From: Candidatus Vogelbacteria bacterium
GTDB lineage: Bacteria > Patescibacteriota > Minisyncoccia > Phycocordibacterales > XYD1-FULL-46-19
Direction: 5' to 3'
Assembly: GCA_050485705.1 (NCBI GenBank)
Contig: JBJHBV010000002.1
Location: 1-44,396 of the forward strand
Length of the DNA stretch: 44,396 nt
The position numbers and the translations under genes were made by a program. This document shows positions 5,908-44,396 of the stretch, piece after piece (within the stretch, counting starts at the first letter, position 1; every line of letters starts with the position of its first letter). The notes under the pieces were generated by a model. That model ran no database searches. It was not told the DNA's origin and was given only the letters and a program-made list of their open reading frames with translations.

Positions 5908-6219
5908 ATGGAAAATTTTGATAAATTTGGTGGTCGTTCGGCGGAAAGAGAGCTTGATGAATCTTTGTCCGAATCAAAACACGGAGAGATTGAGAGAAGA
6001 GAGAAGCTCTGGAAGTTTTTAAGTGGTAATCCTAATAATATTTTAGATGCTCCGATTGAAGATTTAGAAGAGTTGATAAAAGCAGCTGAAGAGCATATGG
6101 CTAGAAGAGAGGCCATGAAAAGAGGTGAGATACCCAACGATGGCATTCCTCAAACCGCTTGGGCCAGGCAGATTTTGGATCAGCTAATAAAAGAAGGAGA
6201 AAGAAAAAAAGCGGCCTAA
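5908..6219 (+). CDS. hypothetical charged/helical protein
   Basis: ORF only. The ATG at 5908 avoids overlap with rnhA. No motif recognised. Confidence 0.4.
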   Translation: MENFDKFGGRSAERELDESLSESKHGEIERREKLWKFLSGNPNNILDAPIEDLEELIKAAEEHMARREAMKRGEIPNDGIPQTAWARQILDQLIKEGERKKAA

Positions 6220-33275: not shown

Positions 33276-33466
33276 TGTTAAAACATTAGCGCCCTTTTTT
33301 GGGCGCTTTTGTTTTTTAAGTGGAGATGGAGCAAAACAACTACTTGTTTTGCGTCGGTAATCGAAGCCACGCAGTATATCCTGAGCCTAGCGAAGGATAC
33401 GAGTGGCCGTCCAGGAACCTTAGTATTTTGTGAATACTTGAAACAAAATACTTAGAATTCCGGGGA
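33276..33466 (+). mobile_element. 191-bp structured insert between duplicated ssrA 3' ends (integration scar or miniature element)
   Basis: Bounded by 20-nt perfect direct repeats. Contains an inverted copy of the repeat end (33318-33329) and hairpins at 33331-33352 and 33422-33452. Confidence 0.5.
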
Positions 33467-33486
33467 CGATTCCCGCCATCTCCACT
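33467..33486 (+). repeat. direct repeat copy 2
   Basis: Identical 20-mer, followed by a strong terminator. Confidence 0.9.
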
Positions 33487-42589: not shown

Positions 42590-42616
42590 TGTCTTATTGT
42601 AACAAAGACAAAGAGT

Positions 42617-42805
42617 TTAAGGATTTTTTCGTCGGAAATTACCTTTGTTGAAGTTTTTAGAATTTAAAGATTGTTTGTACTTAAAGTCTGCCTGGGTCCT
42701 AAAGGAAGCATTACCCGGTCTTTTGCTTTGATTCATTTTGTTACGATTGTTACCTTTCATGAGGTTGATTATAGCAAACCAGAGTAAAAATATGTAGTTT
42801 ATCAT
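42617..42805 (-). CDS. small very basic protein, hypothetical
   Basis: ORF ends 27 nt upstream of recG. N-terminal hydrophobic segment and Lys/Arg/Asn-rich tail. No family recognised. Confidence 0.3.
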   Translation of the reverse strand: MINYIFLLWFAIINLMKGNNRNKMNQSKRPGNASFRTQADFKYKQSLNSKNFNKGNFRRKNP

Positions 42806-42851
42806 TTGGTTTTTGTGCTTCTGTATCCAGCTTTATGGGGTACATATTAAG

Positions 42852-42938
42852 TGCGGAGAGGGAGGGATTCAAACTTTGTACCTCAAGCCTTGTAAGGGTA
42901 TTCTAGCAGATTTTCAGATTGGTTTTCGATGTCTCCGC
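42852..42938 (-). other. tRNA-like element: 7-bp acceptor-like closing stem and tRNA 3'-end-like tail, but no cloverleaf
   Basis: Minus strand: GCGGAGA...GTTTGAATCCCTCCCTCTCCGC-A. D, anticodon and T stems cannot be drawn. Confidence 0.4.
42853..42869. repeat. direct repeat R1 (tRNA 3'-end-like)
   Basis: GCGGAGAGGGAGGGATT matches 43870-43886 at 16 of 17 positions. Confidence 0.8.
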
Positions 42939-43097
42939 ATAGGTCTTACTTTTTCGTCAAATACCAACAAATACCAATTTTTTGGGTATCAAATGCGACA
43001 ATACTACAAATGAGACACAAAACAGGGATATTTGGGAGTGTCTCATTTACGTCTCATAATATCAATATTAGTTGCTTTTTAGTTCTAATATCCAACC

Positions 43098-43703
43098 TTA
43101 AGCTACCACTAGATTGATAAATTGTTCTCGTGTCTCAGGTGTTTTCTCGTAGTGCATTGGTATTACCTTCGCAATCTTTTTGAATTTTTTAGTAAATTCA
43201 AATGCTTCTTGCGGACCAAATGTATAAAATGTTCCAACTGGCAATAGCGCAACATCTACTTCGAGGTTTGAAACATCAATACCAGATTCGTAGAACATAT
43301 CGCCTGCAAAATAGATTGTTTGATCCTCTGCTGTGATCAGGAAGCCAAAATTTTCCTGAAGGGGTGCAGATACATTTGGACCGTGGTCCACATTGAAAAA
43401 TTGCACCGTAATATCTTCGATAGCTACTGTATCGCCAACTTTTACTCGAGTGATATCAGTGGCAAGATTTTCTTCACCAAGGGTTTCAATGCACTCCTGA
43501 TTCAAATAGAGTTTTTTAGGTGAGAGCGCCTTGATCTGTTCAAGGGAGAAGTGGTCGCCGTGGATGTGTGATACGAGCATTGCATCTACAGTAACCCCTC
43601 GAAGCTTTTCAACTGGAGTTTTATTGCCAATATCAAAAGCCAAAAGAAAACCCTTGCTAGTTTCCAAAACAAAGCCTGATTGCTCAAATTTAGTGAGTCT
43701 CAT
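43098..43703 (-). CDS. small MBL-fold metal-dependent hydrolase
   Basis: SHIHGDHF motif, about 200 aa. Confidence 0.8.
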   Translation of the reverse strand: MRLTKFEQSGFVLETSKGFLLAFDIGNKTPVEKLRGVTVDAMLVSHIHGDHFSLEQIKALSPKKLYLNQECIETLGEENLATDITRVKVGDTVAIEDITVQFFNVDHGPNVSAPLQENFGFLITAEDQTIYFAGDMFYESGIDVSNLEVDVALLPVGTFYTFGPQEAFEFTKKFKKIAKVIPMHYEKTPETREQFINLVVA

Positions 43704-43867
43704 AAACTTATTTTAACAAAAAATCAAGCTTAAATAAAGGATTTTCAGAGCGATAGTTACCAACACTTCAGGCTCCCGAGACTTTCTAGACTCCTTGGAC
43801 GATCTGCGTCATTCCTTGTGTATATCAGCTAATAAAAAAGGAATACATATGCAACTACTTAGTTCTC

Positions 43868-43948
43868 TTGGCGGAGAGGGAGAGATTAGGGTCAGCTCAC
43901 CTCAATATTTTAGTTCGCTTCTCTCTTAAAATATTGGGTGGCTCCCTC
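43868..43948 (-). other. tRNA-like element ending in an encoded CCA, with a long central hairpin in place of a cloverleaf
   Basis: Minus strand: GGAGGGA...CAATATTTTA-loop-TAAAATATTG...TAATCTCTCCCTCTCC-G-CCA. Confidence 0.4.
43870..43886. repeat. direct repeat R2
   Basis: GCGGAGAGGGAGAGATT. Confidence 0.8.
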
Positions 43949-44396
43949 CTTACAGGAGCTGTACACCTTTTGGATATTTTCATTACATAAAAATATCTCA
44001 AAAGGTCTTGCAAAGCTCCAAGTATTCGCTTCTCACCCGGGCTCGTCAGTAACAAATTTTTTACAAAAATTTATCTGACTCCGCCTTTCGAATCCCACCC
44101 TCACCATCTTAGCTGTCAATTTTAATACAGCTCCAAGTATTCGCTATATTAAAATAGCCAGTGCGGTGAAATTATATCCTTTGCGCGAACCCATTTTGAA
44201 TAAAACACCTGACGCGCCTCGGGCGCGGAGCGTTAGCGGAGCGCGCCCGAGGCGCGGTCATCCAATTTCCTTTCGGAAGCGGAAGTTACATTTGGCGGAG
44301 AAGTTATGACCGTTGCTCGAACTTTCTTTGACCAATCGCGAAGCGATTGAATCAACCAACAACGCGCGGAGCGCGTGGTGACTTTGTACTTTTGCG
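43949..44396. other. ORF-free, hairpin-dense segment with GC-rich stems (candidate large structured RNA or mobile-element end), truncated by the window edge
   Basis: No ORF of 60 aa or more in any frame from 43717 onward. The 14-bp perfect stem 44213-44226/44241-44254, the GAA and GGA triloop hairpins at 44332-44348 and 44361-44375, the 17-nt direct repeats at 44013 and 44128, and the tRNA 3'-like end at 44086-44105 all lie inside this span. Confidence 0.45.

Follow-up and report, generated by a model that had tools for sequence, protein, structure and literature searches.

Why should a short sequence that resembles the 3′ end of a serine tRNA occur twice, about 1 kb apart and in the same orientation, where no tRNA gene is called and where the gene for a metallo-β-lactamase (MBL)-fold hydrolase lies between the copies? 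The question is raised by a stretch of 44,396 nt (the window, to which all coordinates refer unless another contig is named), which is the entire contig C2 of a Candidatus Vogelbacteria genome of 589 kb in 61 contigs with ~39% G+C. Close homologs of the genes on C2 come from metagenome-assembled genomes (MAGs) labelled Nomurabacteria, Paceibacterota and Parcubacteria, that is, from Patescibacteria or the candidate phyla radiation (CPR). The sequence GCGGAGAGGGAG(G/A)GATT is found exactly twice, at 42853–42869 and 43871–43887 (17 nt; the copies and their immediate surroundings are referred to as el1 and el2, respectively), against a chance expectation of 0.02 matches, and two matches were found in none of 100 shuffled sequences. 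An initial annotation of the window had noticed the repeat pair, which is real and non-random, although it placed the start of the second copy at 43870 instead of 43871. It offered three explanations, namely attachment (att)-site scars of an element that delivered the MBL gene, degenerate tRNA genes, and a family of tRNA-mimicking RNAs. Here we report that el1 and el2 are displaced pieces, running from the T-loop to the 3′ end, of one tRNA-Ser(GCT) gene. The fuller reading, in which both were left by serial site-specific insertions into the T-loop of this gene, with a clade of large serine recombinases (LSRs) as the likeliest catalyst, has in our estimate a probability of about 65%.

Two displaced 3′ ends of one tRNA-Ser gene

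Read on the minus strand, el1 is TTTGAATCCCTCCCTCTCCGCA and el2 is CTAATCTCTCCCTCTCCGCCA. In both, the T-loop, the 3′ strands of the T-stem and acceptor stem, and the discriminator match the genome's own tRNA-Ser, with tRNA-Ser(CGA) (3′ end ...GGTTCGAATCCCTCCCTTTCCGCA) as the comparison gene, in agreement with the serine-like 3′ ends that had been annotated. The annotation was also right that a CCA is encoded in el2 and not in el1, that el2 contains an AT-rich hairpin of ~10 bp, that el1 lies upstream of a 62-aa open reading frame and recG, and that the interiors do not fold as cloverleaves: ARAGORN calls no tRNA in 42600–44396, and Rfam gives no match there, RF00005 included, even at E ≤ 10. 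The likeness to real tRNA-Ser(GCT) genes (those of the relatives G001, G009 and G010) ends in the T-loop, and upstream of this point the sequence is that of an island or of a small element, both described below. Neither copy is a tRNA or a conserved pseudo-tRNA.

Judging from gene order and flanking sequence, el1 is the native end of the gene, displaced together with its native trailer by an island carrying the MBL gene. The empty site is represented by G009, where recG is directly preceded by an intact tRNA-Ser(GCT) of the same orientation, while tRNA-Ser(GCT) of G001 carries a member of the small-element family. The stretch after el1, TGTACCCCATAAAGCTGGA, is the trailer behind tRNA-Ser genes in G010 and G014, and the similarity of the el1 side to an island of the relative G361 stops right after GTTTGAATC. 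Among tRNA-Ser genes of the present genome, ARAGORN finds TGA, CGA and GGA and does not find GCT. On contig C19, 166 nt from its end, lies a tRNA-Ser 5′ part that has the matching acceptor strand, GGAGAGG (GGAGAGGTGGCTGAGTGG), and is followed by another type of insert. Together with the context of el1, this places the working, intact tRNA-Ser(GCT) most likely just beyond position 44396, in the assembly gap that separates this end of C2 from C19.

A decayed MBL island between the copies

The MBL protein has 60 CPR homologs (49–92% identity) in varied genomic contexts, and none of their genes adjoins recG. In the relatives inspected, L081 (92% identical) and L083/L084 (87%; two copies of the MBL island in one genome, G361, on contigs 3 and 4), the gene adjoins a divergent LSR gene, the product of which has Resolvase, Recombinase and Zn_ribbon_recom domains. 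In these islands, 2–5 kb of cargo follow the MBL gene, and then comes an end region that matches 42874–43060 of the window. The shared end is composed of TTGGYATTTG twice, TGTCGCATT twice, a GAGACAC hairpin and ATGCGGAGACATC...TGCTAGAATACCCTTACAAG.CTTGAGGTACAAAGTTTGAATC, and the core of the right end, GCTAGAATACCCTYACAASGCTTG, is also present in G012. Since this same end abuts fragments of different tRNAs, TCGAGTAGCCCGCA in G361 and CCTCCCTCTCCGCA in the window, the island junction lies in the T-loop.

On the el2 side, the similarity to G361 resumes at 43855, the position of the recombinase gene of G361, and the sequence directly after el2, AGAGAACTAAGTA, is the conserved left end of the same island family. 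With left-end sequence after el2 and the island right end at el1, the two copies mark the two ends of one decayed island: a 17-nt direct repeat of tRNA-Ser 3′ sequence bounds the inserted DNA, and both island ends abut it, as is the case for islands in tRNA genes (tDNA islands). No integrase gene lies between 42870 and 43870, whereas one is present in the related islands L081 and G361; by this comparison, the island appears to have lost its recombinase module and most of its cargo, with the MBL gene and the island ends being left. The encoded CCA and the G/A difference of el2 fit a 3′ end that was imported with the island. The first of the three explanations, att-site scars, is thus borne out: el1 and its trailer match the relatives' native tRNA-Ser 3′ end upstream of recG, the left end follows el2, and the MBL gene and the el1-side end occur together in LSR islands. 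As for the presence or absence of the intervening segment in relatives, the site before recG is empty in G009, and the MBL segment is found elsewhere, in LSR islands.

According to the second explanation, el1 and el2 are decayed full tRNA-Ser genes, and the MBL gene merely lies between two old tRNA genes. Both copies do end like tRNA-Ser, and el1 has CTGCTAG at about the distance of a GCU anticodon loop in addition to a 7-nt complement of its 3′ end. However, this motif is the conserved extended −10-like box of the island end, CTGCTAGAAT, which also stands beside other tRNA fragments in G361 and G012, and it was therefore rejected as the anticodon loop of a decayed tRNA-Ser(GCT). The interior of el2 is, moreover, the core of a family that stands behind at least 19 other tRNA specificities. 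With the tRNA similarity stopping in the T-loop and no tRNA signal at E ≤ 10, this explanation is largely refuted, and we consider it highly improbable. The two 5′ acceptor strands that had been assigned to the copies find other explanations. GAGGGAG (43948–43942), proposed for el2, sits in a motif of helix P3 of the family, AGGAG(G)CC, that is invariant in all members whatever their tRNA. GCGGAGA (42938–42932), proposed for el1, is island-borne: the related island of G361 has the same ATGCGGAGACATC at its end, where the neighbouring 3′ fragment comes from a different tRNA and cannot pair with it. GCGGAGA is therefore element sequence and does not represent the 5′ strand of a tRNA; it may have been left over from an inverted att arm.

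A promoter scan of the island right end revealed an outward-facing, extended −10 promoter-like site (TCGAAA at 42929–42924, an 18-nt spacer and TGcTAGAAT ending at 42900); TGCTAGAAT, with TCGAAA 18 nt upstream, points out of the island toward recG and is promoter-like by sequence. The decamer pairs at 42958–43008 resemble iterons or protein-binding arm sites. The presence of the island twice in one MAG and of MBL homologs with 77–92% identity in MAGs of different CPR classes suggests recent horizontal spread. We also considered the MBL protein as a tRNase Z-like partner of the repeats and rejected this idea, as the protein is small, belongs to Lactamase_B_3 and moves as cargo among varied contexts.

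A family of gene-less elements behind tRNA and tmRNA genes

On the upstream side, el2 forms one arm of a small element (43871–44105) that belongs to a large family. We built a covariance model, R1, from 11 copies of the family and searched this genome, 40 relatives and 301 genomes sampled across the phylum; tRNA counts around the elements were taken from per-locus ARAGORN runs. In this genome, 12 of the 36 tRNA genes, as well as ssrA, have their own 3′ part, from the T-loop after TTC onward, repeated 142–211 nt downstream. The layout between the copies is a hairpin, an antisense copy of the tRNA part, GAAAG, helices P2 and P3, and a junction after GCTGACRCC, beyond which lies the displaced 3′ end. 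Examples of the antisense arm are CCGGAATC (Pro), GGAGAATC (Gly) and CAGGACTT (Trp). P2 and P3 have invariant internal loops, CGGAG/CGAG and AGGAG/UGAC, and the core is a three-way junction. In the element behind ssrA, an anti-acceptor segment (AAGTGGAGATGG), a hairpin, an anti-T segment (GTCGGTAATCGAA) and two helices precede the 20-nt ssrA 3′ end.

R1 detects 16 copies in this genome, including the window copy and the ssrA copy, and further copies in 25 of the 40 relatives (1–16 per genome) and in 9 of the 301 phylum-wide genomes. A tRNA or tmRNA gene lies on the same strand within 900 nt upstream of 70 of the 78 distinct copies, and the sense arm matches the 3′ end of the upstream gene in 59 of the 78; the upstream gene of the window copy lies beyond the contig end. 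The hosts comprise at least 19 tRNA specificities plus tmRNA, and 77 of the 78 copies contain no protein gene. Near-identical cores are found behind different tRNAs, with 100% identity between those of Gly and Pro and likewise between those of Lys and Ser.

The window copy scores 56.7 bits in a filters-off R1 search of 42600–44396. It consists of the antisense arm (44105–44090), GAAAGG (44089–44084), P2 (about 44083–44035), P3 (about 43950–43890) and the junction, where ...GCTGACCCT is followed by AATC. The true partner of the el2 arm is the antisense arm, GGTGAGGGTGGGATTC, about 215 nt upstream. An extra module of ~90 nt between P2 and P3 (~43946–44045; GAGAAGCGAATACTTGGAGC, a hairpin and GCTCCTGTAAGG) is 95% identical to C1:26278–26362 and is the most frequent match in relatives, with 4–5 copies among the matches listed in several genomes. 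Copies of the parts of the window element are found behind other tRNA genes of the same genome. In contrast to el2, el1 gave no match to R1 and hence is not a family member.

The fold is well conserved. Over the 78 copies, 92% of cells are paired, compared with 34–39% in slid controls, the former figure being somewhat inflated because the alignment was fitted to R1, and compensatory changes occur at 31 of the 34 pairs of the R1 fold. G-U pairs outnumber A-C pairs by 9:1 in P2 and 33:10 in P3, and this excess indicates that the fold belongs to the tRNA-sense strand. The cores gave no Rfam match at nine loci at E ≤ 1, nor in the window region at E ≤ 10.

These results also bear on the third explanation. 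It was correct for el2, a member of a large family whose non-tRNA core is closed by an acceptor/T-like helix, and for the element next to ssrA, which is of the same family; it failed in that el1 is not a member and the helices originally drawn are not those of the family. In an RNA-based account, the core would be a functional RNA (a tRNA-like minihelix that shares the 3′ end of the host tRNA, a guide or a ribozyme-like device) that is transcribed with or after the tRNA and either spreads itself or serves the cell. Such an account fits the three-way junction, the strong covariation, the tolerance of G-U pairs on the tRNA-sense strand, the equality of the closing helix with the 3′ strand of the host tRNA's acceptor and T-stem, and the near-complete lack of protein genes. 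However, the U-run hairpins after the first tRNA copy in several elements (e.g., those of ssrA and Gly) make read-through doubtful, no Rfam family or ribozyme core is recognised, and the antisense arm is accounted for by the inverted att arm of LSR elements, as described below. We regard an RNA-based mechanism as improbable. Particular ribozyme ideas (hammerhead, hepatitis delta virus (HDV)-like, and group I/II guide pairing) were discarded, as neither their core motifs nor Rfam matches were found.

The small elements are insertions

The tRNA-Arg(CCT) locus has both states within one genus: it is empty in G022, where the gene is followed by its trailer, and occupied by an element in G003. In G003, a decaying copy located after the junction (GACGCC) keeps the T-stem strand of the G022 type (CCTAC) and the trailer, while the working tRNA-Arg has a different, element-borne 3′ part. 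Tandem and nested copies, the patchy distribution and contig breaks at element loci fit insertion as well. On this evidence the small elements are insertions, and we count the displaced ends, family membership and the fold as shown, too.

If the family were not mobile, it would be a host-encoded module of the tRNA 3′ flank, for example a signal for termination or processing, and would co-evolve with the individual tRNA genes. This would suit the fact that the elements always share the orientation of the tRNA or tmRNA gene behind which they stand and often contain terminator-like hairpins. It is hard to reconcile with a distribution limited to 25 of the 40 relatives at unequal copy number, with the tandem and nested copies, with presence and absence within a genus accompanied by a decaying displaced 3′ end, with the many contigs that break at these loci, and with an LSR gene inside one copy; we accordingly give it very little weight. 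A retroelement that inserts by target-primed reverse transcription (TPRT) with target-site duplications of variable length was dropped too: left ends of truncated, older elements account better for the duplicated "trailers", and an inverted att arm for the antisense arm. The elements apparently constitute an undescribed family of tiny, gene-less, structured, T-loop-inserting elements that are very common in these small-genome bacteria; no description of them was found in the literature searched.

A probable link to large serine recombinases

A copy in G017 connects the family to LSRs. Behind tRNA-Ser(GGA) of this relative, an arm of ~190 nt starting from T-loop position 57 is followed by an LSR gene in the opposite orientation; then come the arm's reverse complement, which ends in GGCGGAGAGGGCGGGATTC, an R1 core (128.6 bits) and the sense copy. 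From this layout, the antisense arm of the small elements corresponds to the inner end of the inverted repeat that brackets the recombinase gene, and the hairpin after the tRNA in the small elements would be the leftover of both arms after deletion of the gene. The only LSR gene of the present genome (contig C30:5829–7586, 48% identical) is convergent with tRNA-Ala(GGC) and flanked by inverted repeats at 5987–6025 and 7541–7577 of C30, the contig ending inside the distal repeat. Resolvase, Recombinase and Zn-ribbon domains are present in the LSRs of G017 and G361 and in the C30 copy, and no such gene is present in the window. Among the relatives, six additional LSR genes directly adjoin a tRNA or tmRNA gene, each between perfect inverted repeats of 69–143 bp. 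The LSR inside the G017 element and the LSR at tRNA-Ala in this genome suggest that the small elements are probably recombinase-less derivatives of LSR elements. The recombinases likely form a clade specialised on tRNA/tmRNA ends, of which the literature searched holds no description.

Several points weigh against the fuller reading. An LSR gene lies inside only 1 of the 78 small elements, an LSR homolog (E ≤ 1e-20) is absent in 11 of the 25 element-bearing genomes, and co-occurrence over the 40 genomes is weak (14 with both, 11 with elements only, 5 with LSR only and 10 with neither). The six other LSR elements cover only the last 4–6 nt of the tRNA and are without the R1 core. A double-strand reaction of a serine recombinase gives no reason for a folded, covarying, strand-specific core, and the near-identical cores behind different tRNAs need gene conversion or retargeting, which the model does not supply. 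In addition, intact tRNA-Ser(GCT) is not seen in the assembly and is placed in a gap. The link to LSRs itself rests on one nested example and a shared architecture.

Some of these observations are what one would expect if the small elements inserted as a folded single strand, the antisense and sense arms of which pair, with the core as a forked loop, and mimic the duplex tRNA site for a tyrosine/Xer-type recombinase that exchanges one strand pair; the LSR gene of G017 would then have been nested into the element or carried along as a passenger. CTX-type integration leaves the layout seen here, with site copy 1, body, inverted site, loop and site copy 2 in succession; the fold shows compensatory changes and strand specificity, G-U pairs exceeding A-C pairs; and the elements persist in genomes without an LSR homolog. 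On the other hand, no candidate tyrosine recombinase is linked to any copy, the one autonomous-looking copy has its LSR exactly between the inverted arms, and the LSR elements at tRNA ends have the same inverted-arm design. We therefore think single-strand insertion unlikely and retain serial insertion catalysed by LSRs as the preferred reading.

Proposed course of events

We infer the catalyst and the order of events at the tRNA-Ser(GCT) locus as follows. The insertion point would be in the T-loop, at about position 56/57, and each incoming element would bring along a copy of the tRNA portion between T-loop and 3′ end, whereby the tRNA gene remains whole and the former 3′ end moves downstream. 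First, an island with the MBL-fold hydrolase gene would have inserted and displaced the native end (el1 with its trailer, upstream of recG). Second, the recombinase module and most of the cargo would have been lost, with the MBL gene, the iteron-rich end and the outward promoter-like site remaining. Third, a gene-less element of ~235 nt would have inserted into the same T-loop and displaced the island-borne end (el2, with CCA), and fourth, further insertions would have occurred upstream, where the contig breaks. The most likely catalyst would be an LSR clade whose integration sites are tRNA/tmRNA 3′ regions and in which one att arm is retained in a second, inverted copy. The gene-less elements would have arisen by deletion and be moved in trans, similar to miniature inverted-repeat transposable elements (MITEs) or to cis-mobilisable elements (CIMEs). 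The features of the window are listed in Table 1.

Table 1. Features of the tRNA-Ser(GCT) locus and of the ssrA-adjacent element in the window
Feature	Position	Strand	Basis
Native tRNA-Ser trailer, CTTAATATGTACCCCATAAAGCTGGATAC...	42820–42851	−	TGTACCCCATAAAG(T/C)GGA also trails tRNA-Ser genes of G010 and G014
el1: displaced native 3′ part of tRNA-Ser(GCT), TTTGAATCCCTCCCTCTCCGCA, T-loop to discriminator plus A, no CCA	42852–42873	−	Matches own tRNA-Ser 3′ ends; relatives' gene order
MBL island right end; contains ATGCGGAGACATCG	42874–42938	−	83% identical to G361 island end; no match to R1
Island end region: tandem iteron-like decamers (TTGGTATTTG twice, TGTCGCATT), hairpin AAATGAGACAC...GTGTCTCATTT	42940–43060	.	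Same repeat set closes islands in L081 (5380–5560), G361 and G012
MBL-fold hydrolase gene, 201 aa, island cargo	43098–43703	−	Pfam Lactamase_B_3, E = 7.5e-20
MBL upstream region common with G361 island; recombinase gene next in G361, missing here	43704–43855	−	blastn to L083/L084 over 43855–43102; sequence comparison
Island left-end remnant AGAGAACTAAGTA, directly after tRNA copy	43856–43868	−	G012 island left end, CCGCCA followed by AGAAAACTAAGTA...
el2: island-borne tRNA-Ser 3′ part, AATCTCTCCCTCTCCG plus CCA; doubles as 3′ arm (P1) of small element	43869–43887	−	Repeat, R1, island left end
Gene-less structured element, ~235 nt, tRNA-trailing family	43871–44105	−	R1 match 68.5 bits, E = 4e-18, full model
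Decayed older tRNA-Ser 3′ copy TTTCACCGCA (44172–44163) and hairpin of trailer and its antisense, CTGGCTATTTTAATATAGC...GCTGTATTAAAATTGACAG	44107–44172	−	90% identical to region behind tRNA-Ser(CGA), C14 5506–5591
Family member behind tmRNA gene; 20-nt ssrA 3′ end repeated at 33467–33486	33276–33486	+	Sequence; R1 match 33347–33485, E = 1.6e-6

A more far-reaching idea is that the three-way-junction core, with its sense and antisense tRNA arms, might act as a folded DNA or RNA attachment site that mimics the acceptor/T minihelix, and that a protein-free element of ~150–200 nt could thereby enter any tRNA/tmRNA T-loop, with the arms as an exchangeable address. Although we consider it doubtful, it would, if true, represent a new kind of structure-guided miniature site-specific mobile element with a tRNA-reading serine recombinase clade.

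Relation to known systems

A regenerated target with a displaced fragment is the standard principle for islands in tRNA/tmRNA genes (Islander database, PMC4383910). As with islands and prophages integrated in these genes, the gene is split here and would be restored by the element's copy, with the native fragment displaced to the far end, which it marks; elements also accumulate in tandem at a single tRNA gene, and the T-loop is a known crossover sublocation of tDNA islands. Sublocation classes for tRNA/tmRNA-gene integration were reportedly set out by Williams in 2002. The known cases of tDNA islands use tyrosine integrases, whereas the linked enzyme here is an LSR, and most copies here are gene-less and 150–240 nt long, with an extra inverted tRNA arm and a conserved folded core.

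Large serine integrases (phiC31, Bxb1, A118/LI, SPbeta SprA; TnpX/TndX) resemble the LSRs described here in their Resolvase, Recombinase and Zn_ribbon_recom domains, precise insertion and short common core. However, they mostly have protein-gene or intergenic targets and att sites of about 40–50 bp, while the targets here are the T-loop or 3′ end of tRNA/tmRNA genes, the recombinase gene is bracketed by 69–190-bp inverted repeats, and gene-less derivatives are abundant. No description of LSRs at tRNA/tmRNA ends with bracketing inverted repeats and gene-less derivatives was found in the literature searched, and, as far as can be seen, the connection between LSR elements with an inverted att arm and the structured elements trailing tRNA genes is new.

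Like MITEs and CIMEs, the latter being att-flanked remnants without recombination genes, the small elements are short, gene-less and multi-copy, retain the termini of an autonomous element, whose enzyme they presumably need in trans. MITEs are derived from DDE transposons and have short target duplications, in contrast to the present elements, which are specific to the tRNA T-loop and each carry the right tRNA 3′ end. In attP(+) of the CTX phage and in attC of integrons, as here, inverted site halves about 100 nt apart can pair and mimic the target, the structure is conserved on one strand, and the integrated layout is the same; however, those sites are used by tyrosine recombinases (XerCD and IntI), none of which is linked to the present elements, and the loop here is a conserved three-way junction.

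The puzzle of the window itself is ordinary biology, namely displaced tRNA ends left by integrating elements. The scale of the phenomenon is of wider interest, with a third of the tRNA genes in a 0.6-Mb genome carrying gene-less structured inserts, the core of which is conserved across an order, strongly covarying and absent from Rfam. The elements break assemblies at tRNA loci, as with tRNA-Ser(GCT), lost in a gap here, and confuse the annotation of att sites and tRNAs. They show, too, that heavy traffic of mobile elements at essential genes is tolerated even in minimal CPR genomes. Should the recombinases recognise the universal T-arm, with the arm sequences setting the address, they may be of interest as programmable integrases.

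Further observations

The region from 44170 to the contig end at 44396 is a mosaic of relics, in which GC-rich hairpins resemble the inverted arms of the recombinase element of G017. Further pieces resembling tRNA-Ser 3′ ends near the contig end are TTTCACCGCA (44172–44163) and TGGCGGAGAAG (about 44294–44304), and TTGCTCGAACTTT, located in the same region, is also found just outside the inverted repeats of the LSR elements L170 and L171.

Behind tRNA-Phe, G022 has a small element (L179, G022:C18, about 1330–1470) that is different from the R1-type element of G003: its antisense arm, GTGTTGGGGTGGACGGGTTCGAAC, is followed by another core and then by CCCACCCCAAGCAC. One site can hence hold different family variants within one genus. 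Rfam recognises a group I intron (55 bits) at L009 (1071–1349; G021:C3), immediately before a tRNA 3′ part, ...GGTTCGAACCCGCCCCCAAGCA, that has a family element downstream; the intron probably interrupts the tRNA gene, which would explain why ARAGORN makes no call there.

Small inserts of a second kind were observed at Ser(GCT) and Leu(TAG); here the duplicated portion is the 5′ part of the tRNA gene, starting in the upstream flank and reaching to the D-loop or D-stem. These inserts (C19:8962–9128, C22:404–673 and L007, about 1800–1990) have in common a hairpin followed by CATCCGGTT.

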